Origin: a virus
Direction: 5' to 3' (one strand)
DNA length: 44,221 bases
IMG/VR virus record: IMGVR_UViG_3300047160_000952
Shown: piece after piece, positions 1 to 44,221 of the stretch
How the letters are laid out: each line of letters starts with the position of its first letter
How positions within the stretch are numbered: the first letter of the stretch is position 1
Translations under genes and position numbers: made by a program
The notes under the pieces: model-generated
Seen by the model: the letters and a program-made list of their open reading frames with translations, nothing else
Databases searched by the model: none
Told to the model about the DNA's origin: nothing

Positions 1-97
1 CTGCGCGCGTATGAAGCCGGCGTGGACGTGTACAAGCTCATGGCCGCGAAGCTGTACAACATCGCGATCGAGCAGGTCAGTGACGAGCAACGGCGCA
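1..97. repeat. Terminal overlap copy 1 (identical to 44125..44221)
   Basis: By eye, ctgcgcgcgtatgaagccggcgtggacgtgtacaagctc...gagcaacggcgca matches exactly at both window ends. Confidence 0.95.
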
Positions 98-2989: not shown

Positions 2990-3622
2990 ATGAACATCGT
3001 CGTATTACACAACCAAGCCACGGTCAAGCCGTTCTCGGTGAACGCGGTCGAGAAGTTGCCGCCGTACTACACCGACCCGCACGCACTGGCCGTGCTGCGC
3101 TACCAGCACAGTCCCTATACTGCGCGTCGTCGCGTGTTCGAGCGGGCCATCGAGATGGAGGCCACCAAGCTGGTCATCGTCATGGGTGGCGTGGGTCTGC
3201 TGCACCGCGCGCACTGGAACGGCAAAGGCCCCAGGACCGAAGCCCGGTACATGAACGAGGCGCAGACGCATGGTCTCTGGAACTACATCGACCGGCTGCT
3301 CGACCGCTACGGCCACGTCTACGTCCCGCCCATGGCCTGGATGCGTCCGTGGAAGATCAGGCCGAAACCTAGCGACCACGTCACCAGCATCAACAACCCG
3401 ACGCTACCGATGGTAGCCGGTTACCGTGTGAAGGCGCTGGCTGAACTGGACGACCTGTCCAACGTCGGCGTGGGTGAAGCGTTGACCAAGCGCGGGTACG
3501 ACAGCTTCACCATTCAGGATTACTTTTTCACAACCCCCGGCAACCTCGACCGTCTCGACGAAACCGGCAGCGCCGCAACCTGGAGCAAGAACTATGAACG
3601 TGCAATCTCTCGTCTCGCGTGA
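2990..3622 (+). CDS. Hypothetical protein (210 aa), first gene of the modification block
   Basis: A strong RBS (caggagg) lies 5 nt upstream of the ATG. Codons are GC3-biased and the 3' end overlaps the next gene by 29 nt. I recognise no family. Confidence 0.85.
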   Translation: MNIVVLHNQATVKPFSVNAVEKLPPYYTDPHALAVLRYQHSPYTARRRVFERAIEMEATKLVIVMGGVGLLHRAHWNGKGPRTEARYMNEAQTHGLWNYIDRLLDRYGHVYVPPMAWMRPWKIRPKPSDHVTSINNPTLPMVAGYRVKALAELDDLSNVGVGEALTKRGYDSFTIQDYFFTTPGNLDRLDETGSAATWSKNYERAISRLA

Positions 3623-4457
3623 CTACTCGAACAGCTGGCGCGACTTCGCGACCGACCTGTTCAAGTACGAGGACGCCGACCCAGGCTACCTGCTGCTGAA
3701 GCGCAGCGGTCTCGACCGCAACACGATGCTGCGGTACGTGATGGCTTGGTGCACGTACTACAACCCGGGGATCGCTGCCGTCGCGTGCCAGTACCAGGGC
3801 CAGAAGTTCTGGGACTACCTGTTCGCCGTGTACGCGACGGCCCAGCGCGCCAGCGAGCGCCGGCACTTCAGGGGCACGGCAGGCATGCAGGCGCTGCACC
3901 AGTGGTCGTGCTCGAAGCCCGAGGCACTCATCGAAGGCACCTACGGCCGCACGTACCTCGACGTGCGCAAGAACATGCAGGGCATCGCGCAGATGGGCGA
4001 CTACTTCTACTGGAAGCTGGCCGACGTGTGGGACACCGTGTTCGACATGCCGGTGGACTTCACCGAGTGCGAGAAGTACATGCCCAAGGTGCCGAAGCAG
4101 GGCGCGGAGCTGATCAACGCGTCTCTGGATCGCAGGTACTACCCAAAATACGGCGCGGATGGGTGGCTCGTGGATACGATGCGGCCCATCACGCAACACA
4201 TCCAAGGCGTGCCGTACAAGGGCAAGAAGCCGGGCGTGAAGCTGGCGCTGCAGGAGGCCGAAACCGTCTGCTGCGTGTTCAAGCAGCACGTGAAGGGCAA
4301 GCACCGCATGGGCACCCGCACGCTCAAGGCATACCGTCGACTGCTGTCGGTGCAGCACGAGTCCAAGAACGCGCGGAAGCTGCTGGACGGGCTGCACGCG
4401 GGCGGCATCTGGACGCCGGCCCGACTGGACACCGTGTTCAGCTTTGTGCAGCCGTGA
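3594..4457 (+). CDS. aGPT-Pplase-like protein (alpha-glutamyl/putrescinyl thymine pyrophosphorylase superfamily, non-clade-1), tentative
   Basis: It shares two blocks with ORF 32059..32871: QGIAQMGDYFYWKLADVWD vs HGIGSFIGGQIIADLKE, and PKVPKQGAELI vs VPGPGSKRGAALL. It is translationally coupled to the P-loop kinase and ThyA-like genes. Confidence 0.55.
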   Translation: MNVQSLVSRDYSNSWRDFATDLFKYEDADPGYLLLKRSGLDRNTMLRYVMAWCTYYNPGIAAVACQYQGQKFWDYLFAVYATAQRASERRHFRGTAGMQALHQWSCSKPEALIEGTYGRTYLDVRKNMQGIAQMGDYFYWKLADVWDTVFDMPVDFTECEKYMPKVPKQGAELINASLDRRYYPKYGADGWLVDTMRPITQHIQGVPYKGKKPGVKLALQEAETVCCVFKQHVKGKHRMGTRTLKAYRRLLSVQHESKNARKLLDGLHAGGIWTPARLDTVFSFVQP

Positions 4458-5035
4458 GCACGCTGGTCTACGTCCACGGCACCAACGGCAGCGGCAAGTC
4501 CACGCTGGCCCGCATGGTCATTGCCGCCGCTGGTGGGCAGACGGCCTACGACCGGCACCCAAAGCTCGCTAGGGCCGCGTCCACGCACACGGCTAGGGGG
4601 TTGGTGCTGCTGGGTCGTTACCGCGCTGCCTGCGGGGGCGTCGACCTGATTGCGCCGTACCAGGACGTGCTCCCCGAGATCAAGCGTCAGCGCAAGAAGC
4701 ACGAGGACATCTTCGCCGAGGGCCTGATCACGCCGGGCGTCCAGAGCTGCACGCAGTTCGCCATGCAGTTCGACCACGCCTACTTCATCCACCTGGACAC
4801 ACCAGAGGAGCAGTGCCACGCCAACATGCTCAAGCGCCGTGCGCGCATGGGCAAGGCCGACCAACCCTACGACCCCAAGAACATCTACGGCAAGGCCCGC
4901 AGCGCACGCAGCTGGGTCGCCAACTTGCAACGAAACGGCCTGAACGCAGTCGGGCTACAGTTCCCTGAGGCACGGGCAACCGTGTTCAACCTGCTCGGCC
5001 TGCCCGAGCCCACCATCGACGACATCCTGGAGTGA
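4454..5035 (+). CDS. P-loop kinase (candidate 5-hmdU DNA kinase or dNMP kinase)
   Basis: Walker A is GTNGSGKST, about 10 residues from a GTG start that overlaps the upstream stop (GTGA at 4454-4457). Only the last 193 codons of track ORF 3746..5035 look coding. Confidence 0.8.
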   Translation: MSTLVYVHGTNGSGKSTLARMVIAAAGGQTAYDRHPKLARAASTHTARGLVLLGRYRAACGGVDLIAPYQDVLPEIKRQRKKHEDIFAEGLITPGVQSCTQFAMQFDHAYFIHLDTPEEQCHANMLKRRARMGKADQPYDPKNIYGKARSARSWVANLQRNGLNAVGLQFPEARATVFNLLGLPEPTIDDILE

Positions 5036-6129
5036 CCATGATTCACAACCCGACGAACCTTCGCCAAGGCCCCTGGGGCTTTGGTCTCACCGTTGACAAC
5101 GTCAACGAAGCCCTGCCGATGGGACTGCAGCTCGTGCAGCAGGTCGGTGTCCCGCGTTCGTCGCGCGGCATCGACACCATCAAGGTGCCCGGCCCGGTCA
5201 GTACCATCTACCGCACCCCGACGCGTCGCGTGCTGTTCGACGAGCAGCGCGATGCCAACCCGTTCTTCCACCTGATGGAGTCCCTCTGGATCCTCGGCGG
5301 CAGCAACAAGGGCGACCTCCCGTTCCACTACCTCGCACGGTACAAGGACTTCAGCGACGACGGCGTGACGCTGCACGGCGCCTACGGTGCACGCTTGCGC
5401 GCGTGGCCCAACGAGCACTCGTGGGACGGCAAAATCGACCAGCTGCTGGGAGTCATCGACCTGCTCCGCAGCAAACCCGACAGCCGGCAGGCGGTCGTGA
5501 GCATTTGGGATCCGAATCGCGACCTGGGCACCGTGACCAAGGACATGCCGTGCAACGACATGGTCATGTTCGCCATCGAGGACGGCATGCTCGACATGCA
5601 AGTGAACAACCGCAGCAACGACGTGATCTGGGGCGCCTACGGTGCCAACGCGGTGCAGTTCAGCATGCTGCACGAGATCGTCGCCATCGCCTGCGGCGTC
5701 GAGATCGGCTACTACGTCCAGAACAGCTGGAACTACCACGTCTACCCGAGCAACCCGTTCTGGCAGAAGTTCCTGGCCGGCGAGCACGACCACGGCGACA
5801 AAGTCAATCCGTACATGTCGGCCGACACGCAACCGTACGCGCTGGCCACGTCGCCGGCCGACGCGCTGATGTTCCTGGAGGACTGCCGCTTCCTGTGCGA
5901 CTGGTTCGAGAGCGACCCGGCGCTGCGCGCACCCAGCAAGGTCGAGGCCCTGCCGTTCAGAACGACGTACTTCAACAAGGTCGTCGTCCCGACGATGGCC
6001 GCGTACGAGGCATTCAAGGACAAGAACTGGGACAAGGCCATCCGCTGGGCGCAGGAAGTCGAGGCCAATGACTGGTCGGCCGCGATGACCCAGTGGCTCG
6101 TGCGTCGCATGGTGAAGGCGCAAGCATGA
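5032..6129 (+). CDS. Thymidylate synthase-fold enzyme (candidate dUMP hydroxymethylase)
   Basis: TS-family motifs are RDANPFFHLMESLWILGG, HGAYGARLR, DQLLGVIDLLRSKPDSRQAVVSIWDP, catalytic-Cys context MPCNDMV and NNRSNDVIWGAYGANAVQF. There is a C-terminal extension of about 100 aa. The GTGA overlap at 5032-5035 couples it to the kinase. Confidence 0.9.
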   Translation: MTMIHNPTNLRQGPWGFGLTVDNVNEALPMGLQLVQQVGVPRSSRGIDTIKVPGPVSTIYRTPTRRVLFDEQRDANPFFHLMESLWILGGSNKGDLPFHYLARYKDFSDDGVTLHGAYGARLRAWPNEHSWDGKIDQLLGVIDLLRSKPDSRQAVVSIWDPNRDLGTVTKDMPCNDMVMFAIEDGMLDMQVNNRSNDVIWGAYGANAVQFSMLHEIVAIACGVEIGYYVQNSWNYHVYPSNPFWQKFLAGEHDHGDKVNPYMSADTQPYALATSPADALMFLEDCRFLCDWFESDPALRAPSKVEALPFRTTYFNKVVVPTMAAYEAFKDKNWDKAIRWAQEVEANDWSAAMTQWLVRRMVKAQA

Positions 6130-6701
6130 TGTCCGAGTACACCGAAGCCAAGCTGTACCGGGACGCTGGCGCCGTCAAGCGGTTCCACGTCCTGCGCACG
6201 CACCGCGCGCAGTCGGTCGCCGAGCACTCGTTCGGCATGCTGATGCTCCTGAAGCAGGTCATGGAGGCCGGCTTCTGGACGACGCGCGACCAGCTCGAGA
6301 CGTACCACCGCGTCATGCATCACGACCTGCCGGAGTTCTACACGGGCGACATCCCCGGCCCCATCAAGCGTGCGCACCCAGCGCTGGGGCCGCTGCTGGA
6401 CGAGATCGAAGAAGACCTCGCGCCGCTGTACCGCCCCGAAGACACGGACACGGTCATGCACGGCGAGATCACCGCGCTGGTCAAGTGGGCCGACCGCATG
6501 GAGGGCGCGCTGTGGGCCATGGAAGAGCTGCGCATGGGCAACCTGAACATGCGGCCCGTGGTCGAGCGCTACCTGGGCTGGATGACCGCAGCCCGTATCC
6601 CTGACTGCGCGAACGCCTTGACCAAGGAAGTCGTGCAGATCGTCGTCGACGAGTTCGGCATCTTGCCCGCAACGGGCGCAACCCTGGAGATGAAGTCGTG
6701 A
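6126..6701 (+). CDS. HD-domain phosphohydrolase, YfbR-like 5'-deoxynucleotidase
   Basis: RFHVLRTHRAQSVAEHS ... HHDLPEFYTGDIPGPIK matches the YfbR pattern (R..R..E.V.EHS ... HD..E..TGD.P.P.K). An ATGA overlap at 6126-6129 couples it to the upstream gene. Confidence 0.85.
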   Translation: MMSEYTEAKLYRDAGAVKRFHVLRTHRAQSVAEHSFGMLMLLKQVMEAGFWTTRDQLETYHRVMHHDLPEFYTGDIPGPIKRAHPALGPLLDEIEEDLAPLYRPEDTDTVMHGEITALVKWADRMEGALWAMEELRMGNLNMRPVVERYLGWMTAARIPDCANALTKEVVQIVVDEFGILPATGATLEMKS

Positions 6702-7243
6702 GCCACGCCAACGCCCGCCAAGTCGGCGGCAATCACTACGTCGGTGCCGTGCAGCACTGGGACATCGCGGCCCTGTACGAGCTGGGCTACTACGAGGGCC
6801 AGATCACCAAGTACATCGCTCGCCACGCCAAGAAGAACAAGCAGCAGGACGTGGAGAAGGCGCTGCACTTCCTCGAGAAGCTGATCGAGCTGCACGTCCA
6901 CGGCAACAAGGCCCCGCAGCACCTGGACTACCCCAACCTGCCCGGCCGCGACCAGGAGAACCGCAACCCGGTGCAGGCGTTCTGCGCGCAAGCGAATCTC
7001 CCCAGCGACGAGACCATGGTCATCAACAAGATGTGCCTATGGCGCAACCACCTCGACCTCATCCGTGTCCGCACGCTGATCCAGGCCATCCTCGGCGGCT
7101 ACGCGCTGGGAGGCCGCGCGCACGAGAAGGTGTGGTTCGACGAGACGGTCGACGACGGCTCGCACCCGCAGGCCCAGGGCTACGTAAACCAGGACGGCCC
7201 AGAAGGCTGGGGCATGCACCCCGACAACCGCGAGGGCGTGTGA
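6698..7243 (+). CDS. DUF3310-family protein
   Basis: QVGGNHY....WDI......GQITKYIARHAKKNKQQDVEKALHFLEKL matches the DUF3310 signature (GG.HY ... KY..R...K...D..KA..YL). The start is a GTGA overlap. Confidence 0.8.
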   Translation: MSHANARQVGGNHYVGAVQHWDIAALYELGYYEGQITKYIARHAKKNKQQDVEKALHFLEKLIELHVHGNKAPQHLDYPNLPGRDQENRNPVQAFCAQANLPSDETMVINKMCLWRNHLDLIRVRTLIQAILGGYALGGRAHEKVWFDETVDDGSHPQAQGYVNQDGPEGWGMHPDNREGV

Positions 7244-27442: not shown

Positions 27443-29923
27443 TTACTCCTGGGATTGGCTGTCATCTTCTGCCGAGTTATCGGCGAGCACCGGCAGTATA
27501 TCGCACCGGCAGTTCGGGTGCAGCGGGGGGCCGTCGCCACCCTCATCGGGGAAGTCGTCATCGAGCGGAACCTGCACCTTGTCCAGCCCGTTGCACTCAT
27601 CACACGTGTCACCGCCGCCGGTCGACCACTCCTTCATGTCGACGACGCCAGAAGCCTTGTAGCCTTCGAGGTTGCCTTGCACGTCTGCGTAGGCGGTCTC
27701 GGTACGGGCGATGGTCTCTGCACGTTCGTCGCTGAAGCCGTAGTTGTCGGCCAGCGCTGTGGCGATGTCGTCGTTGGTCGCGCCCGACTCGATGCCACTG
27801 ATCAGGTCAGTGCGCAGCATGTCTCGCGTGCTGTCCTCCAAGTCCTTGATCAGCGTAGCGCTGCGCTCGGCAGCGTAGTCCACGGCACGTTCGTTGACTT
27901 GGTCGAGCATGCTGTCGTCGATGTCGCTAAGCACCTGAGCCAGCGCGACTTCACCGGCCTCTTGCGTCATGTCCTCCAGCAGCTCGGCCAAGTCCGGCGC
28001 GATGTCCTGCAGCTCCTCGAACGTCAGCTCGCTGAGCAGGCGCGTCGTCTTCTCGTCGGCGCTGATGGCCGCTTCCTTGACGCCGGCCTTCTCGCCCAGT
28101 TCACGACTGATGCGCTTCCCCGCAGCGGCAAGAGCCGTCTGCACGAGCGTAGTGATACCGCTTGTACACTCCTTCACGGACTTGCGGTTGCGGTTCAGCG
28201 GCTTCACTGCCTTGCGCAGCGAGGCCGCTTGCGTTTTTCCCACCGGTTTCGCCGTACCTCCTTGCGCTGCGACCGGGCCGCCGGGCTTGCCACCCGGGGG
28301 CGGTTGACCGTCTCCTGGTACCTGGGCATTGGGCGCACCCGGTTGGCCCAGCGCAGGAGGTGCTGGGGGCGTCAGCGTGGCCTTTTGCTCCTCCGTCAGC
28401 GCCGGCATGCCCAGCTTGTCGCGCGCCTCGTCCGGCGTCATGATCTTGGCCGTGGTGTAGCCCGTGAGCGTCTGCATCTGGGCCAGCGGCGCGGCTTCCT
28501 CGTCCTCGACCCACTTGAACTCCAGGTCATCGTAGCCGAAGTACTTCCAGATGATGTAGTCCATCATCCCCTTGAACCACTTCATCAGCGGCGTCAGACC
28601 TTCGGCCTGTGCTTGATCCTTCTGGGTCTCGGCAGTCGCACGGTTGACCTGTTTCACCAGCGCAGACGGCGGCAGCGAGAAGCAGAAGCAGATGACACGA
28701 GCCAGCCAGTCGTCCATGTCGTCCTTCAGGCTCTCGCCCTTGGTCGGCGTGTACGCGGTGCCACCGGGCACGAACTTGGCGTGCCGGCGCTGCGCGGTGT
28801 CGCCTTCGAGGATGCTGTCCCAGTACTCCTGGAACAGACGGATCTGGTCGGGCGACCACTCGGTCGGCACGCCGATCAACGCTTCCGGCACGTTGCCTTC
28901 GGTGTAGAACTGCAGCTGGTGCACCTGACGGCGCAACGCGATGTTGACCGTCATGATGATCTGTTCGACCGGGCTGTAGCCGTACATCTTGTGCGTGCGC
29001 ACGTTGCGCGGGCGGTAGATCAGCTCGTCGCGCGTGTAGTTGATGGCCGGCAGACCGTGCATGATCTGCTGGTATGCGGGATCGGGCGGCAGCGGCGTGC
29101 GACCGGTGTCGTCCAGAACGCGCTTGATCGTGCTGCCATCGATCAGCTCCATGGCGTACAAGTCGCCACCGACGGTCATGCGCGGGAACAGCGTGGGCGC
29201 GTCCAGCACCAGCAGATCTTCCAGGATGGCGCGCATCCAGGTGTTCCAGTCGTGCTCCTGGTCGGGGTACTGGAAGAACTTGGTGATCTCCTCGATGCGC
29301 GGGTCTTGCACCGGCAGCTCGGGGATCTCCGGAACATCCTTGGGCTTGGGTGCCAGCGGCGCCGGTTGACTGAACGTGCCGTCACCGTTGTCGACCGGCT
29401 GTTGCGACTCGAAGTCCTTCTGCTGTTGGGCGTTGTCCGCCTTGACCTTCTCAGCGTGCTTCTTGACGGCCTCGACGCGCTTGACCGCCTGCTGGTGCTT
29501 CTCGATCTCGGGCTTCAGACCGATCTGCCACTCCATGGCTTCCATCTGGTCTTTGCGTGTCTCGATGGCGATGCGCAGCAAGTCCAGGTTTTCGGACAGG
29601 TTGCGCAACTGGTGGAAGCTGATGCCTTCGCCGTCGCGTGGCGTGCGGCGCACGTTGACGTTGACCGGGTAGTTGAACGCACGACCGCGGATGCCAGATG
29701 CTTCCGGCACGATAGGTGCGACCGGCTGACCCGGGCCCATCCACTGCGTCGGAGTGCCAGCGTTGATGTGCGGGATCTGGTCACGCGCACCTTGCACCAC
29801 GTCGTCCAGCAGTCCGTTGTCGATGGGCGTCGCTTTGGTGCCAGGGTTCTTGCGCGGCGAGTTGTCGCCGGCACCGAACACGGCCTTGAGCAGCCGGTTC
29901 AAGAGCGTTTGGTTTGCAGCCAC
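27443..29923 (-). CDS. Portal protein fused to a C-terminal Mu F / SPP1 gp7-like head morphogenesis domain
   Basis: 826 aa. The C-terminus ERAETIARTETAYADVQGN...W.TGGGDTCDECNGL...GPPLHPNCRCDILP is the MuF signature. The N-terminal ~520 aa sit where a portal gene is expected, after terL. Confidence 0.9.
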   Translation of the reverse strand: MAANQTLLNRLLKAVFGAGDNSPRKNPGTKATPIDNGLLDDVVQGARDQIPHINAGTPTQWMGPGQPVAPIVPEASGIRGRAFNYPVNVNVRRTPRDGEGISFHQLRNLSENLDLLRIAIETRKDQMEAMEWQIGLKPEIEKHQQAVKRVEAVKKHAEKVKADNAQQQKDFESQQPVDNGDGTFSQPAPLAPKPKDVPEIPELPVQDPRIEEITKFFQYPDQEHDWNTWMRAILEDLLVLDAPTLFPRMTVGGDLYAMELIDGSTIKRVLDDTGRTPLPPDPAYQQIMHGLPAINYTRDELIYRPRNVRTHKMYGYSPVEQIIMTVNIALRRQVHQLQFYTEGNVPEALIGVPTEWSPDQIRLFQEYWDSILEGDTAQRRHAKFVPGGTAYTPTKGESLKDDMDDWLARVICFCFSLPPSALVKQVNRATAETQKDQAQAEGLTPLMKWFKGMMDYIIWKYFGYDDLEFKWVEDEEAAPLAQMQTLTGYTTAKIMTPDEARDKLGMPALTEEQKATLTPPAPPALGQPGAPNAQVPGDGQPPPGGKPGGPVAAQGGTAKPVGKTQAASLRKAVKPLNRNRKSVKECTSGITTLVQTALAAAGKRISRELGEKAGVKEAAISADEKTTRLLSELTFEELQDIAPDLAELLEDMTQEAGEVALAQVLSDIDDSMLDQVNERAVDYAAERSATLIKDLEDSTRDMLRTDLISGIESGATNDDIATALADNYGFSDERAETIARTETAYADVQGNLEGYKASGVVDMKEWSTGGGDTCDECNGLDKVQVPLDDDFPDEGGDGPPLHPNCRCDILPVLADNSAEDDSQSQE

Positions 29924-31583: not shown

Positions 31584-32018
31584 TCAGTTCTCCTGAGTGA
31601 GTTTGGGCTTGCCGTCGCCGTCGCTCTCGACGAACTCGATGAGGAACGGCACCGGGCCGGTCTGCTGATCACCACTGCCTTGCGTGCGCACGGCGTTCTT
31701 CAACTCCACCGTGCTGATCTTGCCGTGCATGTAGGGCGCGGCGGCTTCGGCGTACTTGGCTGCGAACAAGCTGCCGCCCACCATGAACGCGCGACGCATG
31801 GCCATGACCATCACGTCCAGCGGCGTGGCGTCTTCGGGCAGCTCCATCGCCTCTTCCGGCGGCGGCTTGCGAGTGCCGGCAGCATAGCCGTCAGCGATGG
31901 CTTTGGTGCGGCGCACGCTGGCGCCCTTGTTCATGGACGCATTGGCCTGCGCCTTGGTGGCGGGCTTGCGTGCTGCGGTCTTCTTGGCCGGCTGTGCGGC
32001 CCTGCGCTGGGTAGCCAT
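31584..32018 (-). CDS. terS: Terminase small subunit candidate
   Basis: Basic N-terminus (QRRAAQPAKKTAARKPATKA) followed by ...AAKYAEAAAPYMHGKIS, resembling small terminases of similar phages. It lies upstream of terL. The alternative GTG start is at 32084. Confidence 0.6.
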   Translation of the reverse strand: MATQRRAAQPAKKTAARKPATKAQANASMNKGASVRRTKAIADGYAAGTRKPPPEEAMELPEDATPLDVMVMAMRRAFMVGGSLFAAKYAEAAAPYMHGKISTVELKNAVRTQGSGDQQTGPVPFLIEFVESDGDGKPKLTQEN

Positions 32019-32058
32019 GATGTACGGGTCGAGTTGTGAGGTCGGCCCGCAGTTTGCC

Positions 32059-32871
32059 TCAGAGCTTGCGCTTGTACGTGCCACCGTTGACTACACGCAT
32101 GTACTTCTCGAACTCGCAGAGGATGTTCTGCGCGTCCTGCGCGTCCACGCTGTAGCTCGCACCCATGCTGGCCAAGATCTTGTTGGCCCAGTCGCGCACC
32201 TGGATGACCGTTGCGTGCCACGTAAGGTCGGAGTTCAGCAGAGCGGCGCCACGCTTGGAGCCAGGGCCGGGCACAGCGAAGTCGTCCAGGTCAGGCAGCT
32301 GCATCATCCAAGGCATGTGCTCCTTGAGGTCAGCGATGATCTGACCGCCGATGAATGACCCGATGCCGTGCAGCTTGCGCAGGCGCTTAGCGTACAGGCT
32401 CAGGCTACCGGCAGGCTTGTTCAGGATGTGACGGTTCGTCCACGCGTCTTCCCAGACCTGATGTGCATAGAACTCAGCCCATGGCGTTGCGTGGCCGTGT
32501 GTGGTGGCCATGTACGCTTGGCTGCGGATGGGCAAACGAAGCTGCAAGCGTGCGTCCAAAACATCCTGGGCGCGCTGCGCGACGTAGCCAATAGGCGACC
32601 CCACTGCACCTACCGACAACAGCGCATGCACCGTGTCCGCGTGGTTGACGCAGCGTGCCACCAGCACCACGTGCGGCAGCGCACCCAGAGGGACATCGCG
32701 GTAGAGCTTGAAGAGCGCGATCGTACCGGCGTCCAGCGTGCGCTTCAGGTTGCAGAAGCGGTACATGCGAAGGATGTCGTCCGTCGGAGCCGGGCCGCCG
32801 TGCTTGCGCCACAGATAGGCCGTGTGCCGTTGCTGTATGAAGTGGGCGAGCTGGTCGTGGATGTGTGCCAT
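32059..32871 (-). CDS. aGPT-Pplase clade-1-like protein (DNA base hypermodification family)
   Basis: N-terminal signature HTAYLWRKHGGPAPTDDILRMYRFCNLKRTLDAGT, plus LHGIGSFIGGQIIADLKE and VPGPGSKRGAALL blocks, as I recall for this family. An AAGGAA RBS is present. It is the first gene of the late operon. Confidence 0.7.
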   Translation of the reverse strand: MAHIHDQLAHFIQQRHTAYLWRKHGGPAPTDDILRMYRFCNLKRTLDAGTIALFKLYRDVPLGALPHVVLVARCVNHADTVHALLSVGAVGSPIGYVAQRAQDVLDARLQLRLPIRSQAYMATTHGHATPWAEFYAHQVWEDAWTNRHILNKPAGSLSLYAKRLRKLHGIGSFIGGQIIADLKEHMPWMMQLPDLDDFAVPGPGSKRGAALLNSDLTWHATVIQVRDWANKILASMGASYSVDAQDAQNILCEFEKYMRVVNGGTYKRKL

Positions 32872-37439: not shown

Positions 37440-38450
37440 ATGACGACGATTTTCAAGTTCCCTGAGTACGAGCAACACCCCATCGCCGCTGAGCTGATGC
37501 CGGGTGGCATGGACGAGCAAGAGTTCGAAGGCTTCGCCGAGGACATCGGCGAGCGCGGTGTGCTCATGCCCATCAGCCTGTTCGAAGGCAAGGTGCTGGA
37601 CGGATGGCACCGTTACCGCGCCGCTCGCCAGCATCAGTGCGCGTTCAAGACCGTCGAGTACACCGGCAAAGACCCTGCCGGCTACATCGCGTCGGTGAAC
37701 GTGCTGCGCCGCAAGCTGGGCTCGCTGCAGCGCGCGCTGGTCGGTTGCAAGCTGCACCGCGAGCACGGATACACCCAGCGCAACGCGTGCAAGAAACTGG
37801 GCATCTCGAACGAAGTGCTGACGCTCGTCCTGCGCGCCATGGACTCGAAGAACGCCAAGCTCGTCAAGCGTATCGAGACCGACAGCGATTTCACGCGCGG
37901 CATGCTCCGTGAAGAGTTGGAGGACGCTGGCCTGATGCGCACCAAGAAGGTCGAAGCAGCCCCCGCCGCTCCGAACTCCGTGTTCGACACCAAGGCCATG
38001 CTGTCCAGCGCTGCCGCATCCGCCGGTCTGGACGACGTTCTGGGCCGCGCTACCGATGGTAGCGACGACGGAGAGGACGACACGGACGACCTACTGAGTG
38101 TCCCCGACACGGGCAAGCGGCGCACGCACCCCGAGCGCAAAGGGAAGGCCAGTGCGGCTCAGCTTCTGCAGGAAGGGTTCACGGCACTGATGGAGGACGA
38201 AAAGAAGACGTTCCTCGAGATGATCTGGCCCGTAGCCCGTGAGTTGGCCCTGGAGTTGCAGCTGCCCGGCACCAATACGGCCCCGGCCAAGCCCGCAAAG
38301 GCTCCTGCAGAGCGTCGAGCGGCCAATGTGGTGGAGACGTCTACCCCCAGGGCCGGCAAGCGCAAGGACGACGCGCCTACGACCCCGCTCGACGTACTGA
38401 AGAAGGCCGTCAAGACCAGTCCGGCGACGAAGGCCAAGAAGTCGGCCTGA
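37440..38450 (+). CDS. ParB-like nuclease (ParB/Srx N-terminal) domain protein with a low-complexity C-terminus
   Basis: LFEGKVLDGWHRYRAA is the ParB/Srx-fold signature. An HTH-like KKLGISNEVL segment is present. RBS is AAGGA. Confidence 0.85.
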   Translation: MTTIFKFPEYEQHPIAAELMPGGMDEQEFEGFAEDIGERGVLMPISLFEGKVLDGWHRYRAARQHQCAFKTVEYTGKDPAGYIASVNVLRRKLGSLQRALVGCKLHREHGYTQRNACKKLGISNEVLTLVLRAMDSKNAKLVKRIETDSDFTRGMLREELEDAGLMRTKKVEAAPAAPNSVFDTKAMLSSAAASAGLDDVLGRATDGSDDGEDDTDDLLSVPDTGKRRTHPERKGKASAAQLLQEGFTALMEDEKKTFLEMIWPVARELALELQLPGTNTAPAKPAKAPAERRAANVVETSTPRAGKRKDDAPTTPLDVLKKAVKTSPATKAKKSA

Positions 38451-42616: not shown

Positions 42617-42835
42617 ATGCCCCTGCTCTTTCCCACCGACCCCGCGCTCAAGCACCGCAACTACAACGGTTCCTGGCGCGCCCGTGAGAAGCCGCACCTT
42701 GTTCGGTACGCCAACGGTGACTGGTTCTGCACGGCTCTCGATAACAACGGGTATCCGTGGTGCGCGATCATGCCGACCGCCAAAGAAGCGTACGACAAGG
42801 TCGTCGGCAACTGCCTCAAGAGGTACAAGCTGTGA
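42617..42835 (+). CDS. Hypothetical protein (72 aa)
   Basis: A CAGGAG RBS is present. The stop overlaps the polymerase GTG start (GTGA). Confidence 0.75.
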   Translation: MPLLFPTDPALKHRNYNGSWRAREKPHLVRYANGDWFCTALDNNGYPWCAIMPTAKEAYDKVVGNCLKRYKL

Positions 42836-44221
42836 TCCCACAAGTCACCATCGACGAGGACATCGGACACCTCGACTACGAAACGTTCTGCGAGCTGGAC
42901 ATCCGCAAGGTCGGTGGCCATCGCTACGCGAAGCACCCGTCGTGTGAAGTGCTGATGGCGTCGTACAAGTTGCCCGGCATGGCCGACGTGGTCACGTGGT
43001 TGCCGTGGTGCGAAGAGCCGCCCGAAGACCTCGTCGAGTACATCGAGAACGGCGGCAAGCTGGGTGCGCACAACGCGTCATTCGAGCGCAACGTCACGGC
43101 CTACGCGCTGTCGCGCATGCACCCCAAGTTCCCCAAGGTCAATAACAACCAATGGGTGTGCACCGCAGCCAAGGCCGCAGCGTCGGGCCTGCCAAGGAGC
43201 TTGGACAAGGCGCTCAAGGCCCTTGAGGCACCCATCGAGAAGAACACCGACGGCACCGCGTTCATCAAGATGTTCTGCAAGCCCCGCAAGCCGACCAAGA
43301 AAGACCCGCGCACGCGCATCCGACCGCGCGACAACTGGCCCGAGTTCGAGAAGGGCATCAGGTACTGCGAGGACGACGTGCGTGGTGAAGAATGGTTGCA
43401 CCACGCCATCCCCGACCTGTCGGCGCGCGAGCAGCGGTTCTTCATCCTGGACATGGTCATGAACGACCGTGGTCTGCCCATCGACATCCCGATGGTAGAG
43501 AAGGCCCTGCGTGTCGTGCAGTCGCTGGAGGCCGACATTGCGGCCGAGGTCGCCAAGCTGTCCGGGGGACTGCGCGCGACCCAGGTGCAGAAGATGCTGG
43601 ACATGTTCGCCAAGCGTGGGCTCGACTTGGAGAACATGAAGAAGATCACCATCGAGAACGCGCTCAAGGATACGACGCTCGACCGCACCACGCGACGACT
43701 GCTGGAGCTGCGGATCGAGGCAGGCAAGGCGTCCACCAAGAAGCTGGTGTCGATGCTGCTGTGCGCTGATCCGTATGAGTGGGTCGTGCAGGGCGGCTTC
43801 CTGTACCACGGTGCCCACACTGGCCGGTACGCGGGTCGTCTGGTGCAACCGCACAACTTCATCCGAGGCATGCTCAAGGCCAACATGCGCGAGTTCATCT
43901 TCGCGCTGCTGGGCATGGACGACGCCGACTACATGCGGATGCTCATCGATGGCGTGCCGTTCCGCGCCAAGGACGGCTTCGCGCTGACCAGCGGCCCGAT
44001 CGACGCCATTAGCCAGTGCATGCGGGGCTTCATCAAGGCGCCCAAGGGCTACGAGTTCGCAGTCGTCGACTACACGGCCATCGAGGCACGGGTGCTGGCG
44101 TGGCTGTGCGACGAAGAGGAGATGCTGCGCGCGTATGAAGCCGGCGTGGACGTGTACAAGCTCATGGCCGCGAAGCTGTACAACATCGCGATCGAGCAGG
44201 TCAGTGACGAGCAACGGCGCA
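42832..44221 (+). CDS. DNA polymerase I (family A) with a 3'-5' exonuclease domain, N-terminal segment; it runs off the window and continues at 98..735
   Basis: My translation from GTG 42832 gives VIPQVTIDEDIGHLDYETFCE (Exo I), GAHNASFE (Exo II), YCEDDV (Exo III) and FAVVDYTAIEARVLAW (motif A). There is no stop before the window end. The total is about 675 aa once joined. Confidence 0.9.
   Translation, partial: MIPQVTIDEDIGHLDYETFCELDIRKVGGHRYAKHPSCEVLMASYKLPGMADVVTWLPWCEEPPEDLVEYIENGGKLGAHNASFERNVTAYALSRMHPKFPKVNNNQWVCTAAKAAASGLPRSLDKALKALEAPIEKNTDGTAFIKMFCKPRKPTKKDPRTRIRPRDNWPEFEKGIRYCEDDVRGEEWLHHAIPDLSAREQRFFILDMVMNDRGLPIDIPMVEKALRVVQSLEADIAAEVAKLSGGLRATQVQKMLDMFAKRGLDLENMKKITIENALKDTTLDRTTRRLLELRIEAGKASTKKLVSMLLCADPYEWVVQGGFLYHGAHTGRYAGRLVQPHNFIRGMLKANMREFIFALLGMDDADYMRMLIDGVPFRAKDGFALTSGPIDAISQCMRGFIKAPKGYEFAVVDYTAIEARVLAWLCDEEEMLRAYEAGVDVYKLMAAKLYNIAIEQVSDEQRR
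44125..44221. repeat. Terminal overlap copy 2 (identical to 1..97)
   Basis: 97/97 identity by eye with the window start. Confidence 0.95.

Follow-up and report, generated by a model that had tools for sequence, protein, structure and literature searches.

A candidate thymidine-hypermodification pathway, reduced to its core, in a 44-kb virus genome

In the virus genome IMGVR_UViG_3300047160_000952 of IMG/VR (44,221 nt, the whole of which we call the window), a block of overlapping genes between positions 3594 and 7243 probably encodes a self-contained pathway for thymidine hypermodification, of the type found in phages M6, PaMx11 and PhiW-14 but reduced to its core. The kind of system, in which thymine in viral DNA is replaced by a decorated base, is already known. 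Judged by sequence, the block is the cluster of M6 and PaMx11 minus its tailoring genes and with the gene for one further protein, of aGPT-Pplase clade 1, moved elsewhere. Its first three genes are predicted to encode an amino acid:DNA transferase (AADT, gene 1), a P-loop kinase acting on 5-hydroxymethyl-deoxyuridine in DNA (5-hmdU DNA kinase, 5-HMUDK, gene 2) and a thymidylate synthase (TS)-fold enzyme that would hydroxymethylate dUMP (gene 3); an HD-domain gene and a DUF3310 gene follow.

The transferase, the kinase and the thymidylate-synthase-fold enzyme

Genes 1 to 3 are consecutive open reading frames (ORFs) on the plus strand, 3594-4457, 4454-5035 and 5032-6129, with products of 287, 193 and 365 aa. 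Each is joined to the next by a GTGA in which start and stop codons overlap (4454-4457 and 5032-5035); both overlaps were read directly in the sequence, and they and the coordinates are as a preliminary description of this DNA had given them. GC content at third codon positions (GC3) is 0.90-0.91 in genes 1 and 3, a coding-type value. The three-gene module of that description is real but drawn too narrowly, as it also takes in the HD gene (6126-6701), joined to gene 3 by an ATGA at 6126-6129, and the DUF3310 gene (6698-7243), joined to the HD gene by a GTGA at 6698-6701. Upstream, the end of a 210-codon ORF (ORF210, 2990-3622) overlaps the start of gene 1 by 29 nt, so that the tightly packed unit consists of six genes, from 2990 to 7243, all joined by start/stop overlaps.

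The assignment of gene 1 to the AADT family comes from a match to PF18724 (ADDT) with an E-value of 9.4e-25 and 88.1 bits, against a cutoff of 26.2, in which residues 11-233 cover profile positions 2-229 of 232. Among protein structures, it matched the PaMx11 gp46 glycinyltransferase (PDB 8z2m, E 2.2e-16) and 25qc (E 4.3e-13). These matches agree with the preliminary description, which had called the protein aGPT-Pplase-like. We aligned gene 1 with five experimentally characterised transferases (M6 gp51, YuA gp10, PaMx11 gp46, PhiW-14 gp109 and that of SH-Ab 15599), for which the roles of the catalytic, metal-binding and pocket residues have been described (PMC8989533, PMC11472151, PMC13458397). 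The catalytic cysteine is kept as C227; its alignment column is invariant, as are those of E221 and E223. The motif around them reads LQEAETVCCVFKQH vs IQEVETILCKWKSH. The catalytic cysteine and the nearby glutamate are essential, as mutants of M6 gp51 and ViI gp247 are inactive, and the PaMx11 counterpart of the cysteine is C247 (PMC8989533, PMC11472151, PMC13458397). Equivalents of the metal ligands are present at E223/T224 (E222/T223 in 15599, E243/T244 in PaMx11) and at D29 (D25 in 15599, D24 in PaMx11), and the lysine of the helix-hairpin-helix (HhH) helix is kept as K141. In its catalytic cysteine and its Glu/Thr metal site, the window protein is like those of PaMx11 and M6.

The donor pocket is different (Table 1). 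By alignment, it contains neither the glycine set (K248/Y257/W146) nor the diamine set (G227/D238/D243): the residues of the PaMx11/M6 type at K248, Y257 and W146 are V, H and Y in gene 1, and D262 and E265 are R and K. The tyrosine at the W146 position is common to the window protein and the diamine transferases of PhiW-14 and 15599, but the rest of their pocket, G227, D238 and D243, reads V228, H237 and R242, and a diamine donor therefore looks unlikely. Because V228, H237, Y137 and R242 occupy the donor positions, gene 1 falls outside the characterised specificity groups, and these residues, together with the reversal from E265 to K245 in the adjoining phosphate-release pocket, suggest a more basic site. 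Taken together, the alignments identify gene 1 as a true member of the AADT family whose donor is probably one not yet characterised.

Table 1. Residues at donor-setting and phosphate-release positions of AADT proteins
Position	Glycine enzymes	Diamine enzymes	Gene 1
Pocket, residue after catalytic Cys	K	G	V228
Pocket, YuA Y257 / 15599 D238	Y	D	H237 (podovirus relatives Y)
Pocket, PaMx11 W146 / 15599 Y139	W	Y	Y137
Pocket, PaMx11 D262 / 15599 D243	D	D	R242
Phosphate-release pocket, PaMx11 E265	E	15599 E, PhiW-14 K	K245

Gene 2 contains a Walker A P-loop, GTNGSGKST, as the preliminary description had read it, and its kinship points to a 5-HMUDK. When the clade of the window kinase was compared by hhalign with three validated kinases (PaMx11 gp49, M6 gp54 and PhiW-14 gp37), the alignment had a probability of 99.6% and an E-value of 2.2e-24 over 169 columns. 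In tblastn, gene 2 found PaMx11 gp49 (2e-7), PhiW-14 gp37 (3e-6) and the M6-like gp54, and BLASTP against PaMx11 gp49 gave an E-value of 1e-14. Six of eight orthologues match PF18748 (HMUDK_HMUD1) at E<=0.01, and the orthologue in the metagenomic contig L016, 48% identical and scanned individually, exceeds the cutoff of 27 with 30.5 bits. Only one of eight members of the clade touches the Pfam dNK family, with an E-value of 0.005, and phmmer of gene 2 against the PDB found no structure that was informative, its matches (RecA, ABC ATPases) being confined to the P-loop. Profile searches, which the preliminary description had named as the check on genes 1 and 2, thus gave significant family matches for both (PF18724 for gene 1, the 99.6% hhalign match for the clade of gene 2), and we assign gene 2 as a predicted 5-HMUDK.

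A different label, "terminase small subunit", is attached to gene 2 by phrog_800 and RefSeq. We rejected it: the validated kinases M6 gp54, PaMx11 gp49 and PhiW-14 gp37 are labelled likewise, which makes the label on 5-hmdU DNA kinases a propagated misannotation that hides such pathways from automated annotation. The actual small terminase is likely the ORF at 31584-32084, which adjoins the large terminase.

Gene 3 has a TS fold, as first described (PF00303, E 1.2e-23), and matches phrog_5131 with an E-value of 2.4e-106. It is 40.6% identical over 95% of its length to the M6 gp58/YuA homologue (41-46% to that of M6 in full-length comparison) and 36-43% identical to PaMx11 gp51, and all of these share a C-terminal extension of ~125 residues that is absent from ThyA and replaces the ThyA tail. 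In E. coli numbering, gene 3 keeps E58, Y94, R126, C146, R166, S167, D169, N177, H207 and Y209 (E83, Y118, R152, C174, R194, S195, D197, N206, H236 and Y238 in its own numbering). The asparagine at position 177 is uracil-specifying, whereas the cytosine-specific enzyme MilA has aspartate there. It departs from ThyA by W80->Y, W83->F, H147->N, R127->Q and loss of the C-terminal tail, features that are linked to shielding of the exocyclic methylene intermediate and to hydride transfer. Its best PDB match is the CMP hydroxymethylase MilA, and it misses every NCBIfam ThyA equivalog cutoff (77.6 vs 174.55, 76.4 vs 327 and 67.7 vs 108.35). Because W80, W83, H147 and the tail are lost, the ThyA cutoffs are missed, MilA is the best structure and the context is that of hypermodifying phages, gene 3 is most likely a dUMP hydroxymethylase of the M6/PaMx11 type, producing 5-hmdUMP. 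The preliminary description had pointed to the same role, and it is strengthened by the kinship with M6, a proven hypermodifier, and by the failure of gene 3 to qualify as an ordinary ThyA.

Genome layout, known systems and relatives

The coordinates of the genes discussed here are collected in Table 2. The genome appears to be circular and complete at 44,124 bp, with an exact assembly overlap of 97 bp (window positions 1-97 and 44125-44221); a terminally redundant form is the alternative. A family-A DNA polymerase gene crosses the junction, running from about 42745 to 44221 and on from 1 to 735, and the polymerase, a VRR-NUC nuclease and an SNF2 helicase stand upstream of the six-gene unit. 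Elsewhere, an 826-aa protein (27443-29923, minus strand) has, besides a portal domain (PF04860), a Mu-F-like domain (PF04233) at its C-terminus, and a gene-transfer-agent (GTA)-like tail region contains Phage-tail_3, Rcc01698_C, DUF2460, BR0599 and NlpC/P60 domains. A 336-aa protein (37440-38450, plus strand) has weak ParB-like matches, below cutoff, in PHROG and NCBIfam. ParB-like proteins are partners of T-dioxygenases in other thymidine-modifying phages; no dioxygenase was found in this genome.

Table 2. Features of the predicted pathway and their positions in the window
Feature	Position	Strand	Basis
ORF210, candidate GT-A-fold (TET-associated-glycosyltransferase-like), 210 aa	2990..3622	+	AF2 model, Foldseek
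Gene 1, predicted amino acid:DNA transferase (AADT, formerly aGPT-Pplase clade 2)	3594..4457	+	PF18724, PDB 8z2m, residues
Gene 2, predicted 5-hmdU DNA kinase (5-HMUDK), P-loop	4454..5035	+	hhalign, tblastn, Walker A
Gene 3, thymidylate-synthase-fold enzyme, predicted dUMP hydroxymethylase	5032..6129	+	PF00303, phrog_5131, M6 gp58 kinship
HD-domain protein, YfbR-like 5'-deoxynucleotidase-like	6126..6701	+	PF12917, PDB matches
DUF3310 protein, PHROGs label "nucleotide kinase"	6698..7243	+	PF11753, phrog_236
aGPT-Pplase clade-1 protein (Pfam "HMUDK_hel")	32059..32871	-	PF18723, phrog_2396

The HD protein matches PF12917 (YfbR-like) with an E-value of 9.3e-15 and 55.2 bits, against a cutoff of 25.9; with the NCBIfam YfbR equivalog it scores 33.3 bits, below the cutoff of 122. 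Its PDB matches are YfbR (1.4e-6) and DatZ (2.1e-5). The longest ORF begins at 6093; translation more likely starts at the ATGA overlap (6126). In M6 (gp59), PaMx11 (gp52), Rhodoferax phage P26218 and a Manatee Spring podovirus, the TS homologue is likewise followed by an HD gene. DatZ is a dATP hydrolase that excludes adenine from the DNA of phage S-2L, and the match to it is a suggestive parallel for the exclusion of thymidine nucleotides. The DUF3310 protein exceeds the PF11753 cutoff of 24 with 26.2 bits and matches phrog_236 ("nucleotide kinase") with an E-value of 1.2e-14, and it has homologues at the same position in M6 (gp61) and PaMx11 (gp53). By analogy with known pre-replicative steps (PMC8989533), the HD protein may deplete dTMP and dTTP, letting 5-hmdUTP be incorporated, and the DUF3310 protein may serve as a 5-hmdUMP kinase.

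The order of these families is the same in PaMx11 (gp46-gp53, which produce 5-AcNmdU) and in M6/YuA (gp51-gp61, which produce 5-NedU). In PaMx11, the order is AADT (gp46), FAD lyase (gp47), acetyltransferase (gp48), kinase (gp49), clade-1 protein (gp50), TS homologue (gp51), HD (gp52) and DUF3310 (gp53); in M6, it is AADT (gp51), pyridoxal phosphate (PLP) enzyme (gp52), radical-SAM enzyme (gp53), kinase (gp54), clade-1 protein (gp55), TS homologue (gp58), HD (gp59) and DUF3310 (gp61). Like these phages, the window genome has a clade-1 Pplase, and its cluster lies close to a family-A DNA polymerase. Unlike PaMx11, it lacks the FAD lyase and the acetyltransferase, and unlike M6 it lacks the PLP decarboxylase and the radical-SAM isomerase. 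Its clade-1 gene is shifted to the packaging region on the other strand, and ORF210 is an extra gene upstream. Amino-acid identity to the PaMx11 and M6 proteins is 22-29% for the AADT and the kinase and 36-46% for the TS homologue.

A core without tailoring genes has precedents. PhiW-14, which makes alpha-putrescinylthymine, and SH-Ab 15599, which makes alpha-diaminopropanylthymine, use the same core-only logic of hydroxymethylase, 5-HMUDK and Pplase2, and in both the product of the transferase is the final base (PMC8989533, PMC13458397). Unlike the window genome, however, PhiW-14 (a T4-like myovirus) and 15599 (Ackermannviridae) have genomes of 143-157 kb in which the genes are scattered, and a dTTPase with a dUTPase fold. 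Small phages with compact modules have also been described: pelagiphages, in which TS genes have Pplase1 partner genes (PMC9599517), and Rhodococcus phage Tonitrus (PMC11955845). The view in the preliminary description that this genome type differs from that of known hypermodifying phages does not hold, since the siphoviruses M6 and PaMx11 have the same gene order and compact versions occur in podoviruses of 36-39 kb and in pelagiphages (PMC9599517).

When the region was compared by megablast with 50,697 phage records, no close relative emerged; the best match covered 319 nt of the TS gene at 75% identity. The closest public genomes of the module are those of Rhodoferax phage P26218 (KP792623, 36 kb) and the Manatee Spring podovirus (MW202557, 38.5 kb), which are 39-73% identical to the window at the amino-acid level (~50-62% for AADT, kinase, TS and HD proteins, ~39% for DUF3310) and share with it the order PolA, VRR-NUC, SNF2 helicase, AADT, kinase, TS, HD and DUF3310. 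Unlike the window virus, both are podoviruses without ORF210, no clade-1 gene was detected in them, and position 237 of their AADT is Y rather than H. Their records label the module genes hypothetical, thymidylate synthase or deoxyguanosine kinase, and the P26218 genome paper makes no mention of DNA modification or restriction resistance (PMC4657236).

The five-gene block is also present in at least eight metagenomic relatives, and four layouts can be told apart. In the first, shared by the window and about five other lineages, ORF210 is followed by AADT, kinase and TS. In the second, ORF210 is followed by kinase, TS and HD and then by clade-1, and no AADT was found in the DNA available: contigs L016 (5857-10329), L020 (7001-11525) and L021 carry ORF210, kinase, TS, HD and DUF3310, with clade-1 next in L016 and L020, and L021 ends before the clade-1 position. 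These relatives suggest that clade-1 can replace the AADT, or that there is another end product. The third layout, AADT, kinase and TS without ORF210, is that of P26218 and the Manatee podovirus. In the fourth, ORF210 occurs without the module: in the near-identical contigs L017 and L018 (5887-7917), its homologue follows the SNF2 helicase, no kinase, TS or HD gene is present, and the next gene is a 354-aa ORF without a Pfam match.

A more distant arrangement is found in the Ralstonia jumbo phage phiRSL1 (L022), where a TS homologue and a clade-1 Pplase are grouped with genes resembling GT-A DNA glycosyltransferases (ORF230-ORF238; TET-associated glycosyltransferases, TAGTs, PF20691). Between 162402 and 171498, three TAGT genes, two sugar-nucleotide genes, a sulfotransferase and an APS kinase stand beside the clade-1 Pplase and the TS homologue, and the cluster is possibly a pathway to glycosylated or sulfated hydroxymethyluracil (hmU). 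The window genome differs from this stretch, which has sugar-nucleotide and sulfotransferase genes and in which no P-loop 5-HMUDK or clade-2 AADT was seen.

ORF210, the clade-1 protein and rival readings

Scanned with Pfam and PHROG, the ORFs of the genome showed no PLP, radical-SAM, FAD/flavin, GNAT acetyltransferase, amidoligase, TET/JBP dioxygenase, dCMP deaminase or dUTPase domain. The preliminary description had recognised no tailoring enzyme anywhere in the genome, and for PLP and radical-SAM enzymes these scans bear it out; as a general statement it is unsafe, because ORF210 overlaps gene 1 and models as a GT-A-like fold closest to phage TAGTs. ORF210 has no match in Pfam, PHROG or NCBIfam. 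It belongs to a small family of proteins of ~200 residues, with 33 representatives among 1.84 billion proteins, and it is strongly conserved in three close relatives. An AlphaFold model built from 3 sequences had a pLDDT of 40, and an AlphaFold2 (AF2) model built from 14 sequences reached a pLDDT of 76.7 and a pTM of 0.76. With the latter, Foldseek against the PDB ranked the STIV A197 glycosyltransferase first (E 5.6e-5), and the matches after it were all GT-A glycosyl- or nucleotidyl-transferases; it also returned phage TAGT proteins with E-values down to 4e-8. The phiRSL1 glycosyltransferases are among the best of these structural matches, yet ORF210 has no detectable membership of PF20691 by sequence.

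On this basis, ORF210 is a tentative candidate for a glycosyltransferase-like tailoring or parallel-modifying enzyme, and the pathway may, though this is the less probable course, go beyond the core: ORF210 would be a glycosyltransferase of DNA, or some other tailoring enzyme that depends on nucleotide sugars, with 5-hmdU or the AADT adduct as its substrate, and a glycosylated base would be made alone or beside that adduct. Its overlap with gene 1, suggesting translational coupling, fits such a role, as does its position directly upstream of AADT-kinase or kinase-TS in every lineage but one (about 9 of 10 independent ones). In phiRSL1, three TAGT genes are independently grouped with a clade-1 Pplase and a TS homologue, and in pelagiphages a glucosyltransferase gene lies beside TS and Pplase1 (PMC9599517). 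Against it, the leading Foldseek matches have TMq values of 0.46-0.60 and high rmsd, and the model is of medium confidence. None of 34 family members matched a Pfam glycosyltransferase model, PF20691 included, at E<=1, a PDB profile search gave no glycosyltransferase match, and the alignment showed no recognisable DxD motif; hhalign against the phiRSL1 TAGTs gave an E-value of 0.0034 and a probability of 9.6%, with a common VAGY block. Moreover, ORF210 is missing beside the module in P26218 and the Manatee phage, and L017/L018 carry ORF210 but not the module. Because each occurs without the other, their vicinity could be mere inherited gene order after the SNF2 helicase, although the further contexts and the fold result soften the merely helicase-associated reading that L017/L018 would suggest.

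The second candidate, the clade-1 protein, is encoded away from the cluster, between packaging genes and a primase-helicase. It matches PF18723 with an E-value of 3.3e-22 and 79.6 bits, against a cutoff of 25, and it is ~27% identical to M6 gp55 and similar also to PaMx11 gp50 and phiRSL1 ORF231. The invariant cysteine of its LCEFxKY motif is C251 in the window protein and is the same in M6 gp55, PaMx11 gp50 and L016. A profile search of the protein against PDB sequences gave nothing useful. The preliminary description had noted two blocks shared by gene 1 and this ORF; they are real, falling in the same register in hhalign, but taken alone they have little statistical strength (BLASTP E 0.17 and 0.47, hhalign E 0.022). 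BLASTP additionally pairs the cysteine motifs, and "..LC..K" is common to both families. We rejected these direct comparisons as proof of paralogy; the kinship follows instead from the passing of PF18724 and PF18723, two aGPT-Pplase clades, by the respective proteins. The apparent paralogue thus belongs to clade 1 and is not a second clade-2 transferase.

There is perhaps a modest chance that the clade-1 protein, too, processes 5-phosphomethyl-dU, acting as a further transferase with a different donor or returning the remaining 5-hmdU to thymine. Its invariant cysteine lies in a motif that aligns with the catalytic cysteine of AADTs, and L016 and L020 combine kinase, TS, HD and clade-1 genes with no AADT found. 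Both clades occur in M6, PaMx11, ViI and PhiW-14 and clade-1 alone in SP10, and the conversion of 5-hmdU to T is described as unexplained (PMC5889632). Set against this, N-alpha-glycinylthymidine formed in lysates without M6 gp55 (PMC8989533), Pfam now describes the family as the helical domain of the kinase, and the metal-ligand E/T positions are Q/N in the window protein.

That the cluster serves ordinary nucleotide metabolism, with gene 3 a divergent normal thymidylate synthase, gene 2 a free nucleoside/nucleotide kinase and plain T in the DNA, is very improbable: homologues are indeed labelled "thymidylate synthase" and "deoxyguanosine kinase" in PHROG and GenBank, gene 3 keeps all residues of the first half of the ThyA reaction, N177 among them, and the window kinase falls below the PF18748 cutoff, but the presence of a genuine AADT, its active site intact and its gene overlapping that of the kinase, would be left unexplained, the kinase clade matches DNA kinases over its full length and dNK in one of eight members, gene 3 misses all ThyA equivalog cutoffs and has lost W80, W83, H147 and the C-terminal tail, and the nearest characterised context of gene 3 is that of hypermodifying phages.

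Several points nevertheless weigh against a hypermodification pathway as we describe it. Gene 2 itself scores 16.0 bits with PF18748, below the cutoff of 27. The preference for hydroxymethylase over synthase chemistry in gene 3 is drawn from residue losses and context; the E. coli ThyA reference used to number those residues agreed with known residue numbering. The roles of the HD and DUF3310 proteins are assigned by analogy alone. Neither a dCMP deaminase nor a dUTPase-type dTTPase was found in the domain scans of the genome's ORFs, and several ORFs, ORF210 among them, have no detectable domain and may hide an unrecognised tailoring enzyme.

Proposed pathway and significance

In the hypermodification pathway that we propose, the ThyA-fold enzyme would convert dUMP to 5-hydroxymethyl-dUMP before replication, the DUF3310 kinase-like protein and host kinases would raise 5-hmdUMP to the triphosphate, and the HD nucleotidase would remove competing thymidine nucleotides. 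The family-A polymerase of the phage would then build 5-hmdU into DNA instead of T. After replication, the P-loop kinase would phosphorylate the hydroxymethyl group on DNA, and the AADT would add a free small-molecule nucleophile to the exocyclic methylene of 5-phosphomethyl-dU, with Cys227 attacking C6 and a metal held by E223/T224 helping to expel the phosphate. Both stages are inferred, the post-replicative steps by homology to reconstituted enzymes. Because no gene for a PLP, radical-SAM or flavin enzyme or for an acetyltransferase was found, the group transferred by the AADT is probably the final adduct. The clade-1 protein and the GT-A-like ORF210 may be further candidates acting on the same 5-hmdU DNA.

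A bolder combination of these elements is conceivable but improbable. The basic AADT pocket (V228, H237, R242, K245) could produce an undescribed thymidine adduct while ORF210, as a new GT-A DNA glycosyltransferase, acts on the same 5-hmdU DNA, giving two replacements of T or a glycosylated adduct; the clade-1 protein would then provide a third fate for 5-phosphomethyl-dU, possibly reconversion to thymine.

By hypermodifying thymidine, phages shield their DNA from restriction enzymes, and the enzymes involved offer new DNA chemistry. The near-minimal pathway predicted here, in five or six overlapping genes within ~4 kb, would make a convenient cassette for reconstitution, and a cultured relative with the same module, Rhodoferax phage P26218, makes a direct test of the prediction possible. 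ORF210, if it truly is a glycosyltransferase, would be a new protein family in the DNA-modification toolkit. Because the pocket of this AADT branch differs at every position shown so far to set the donor, testing the window enzyme could reveal a new base.

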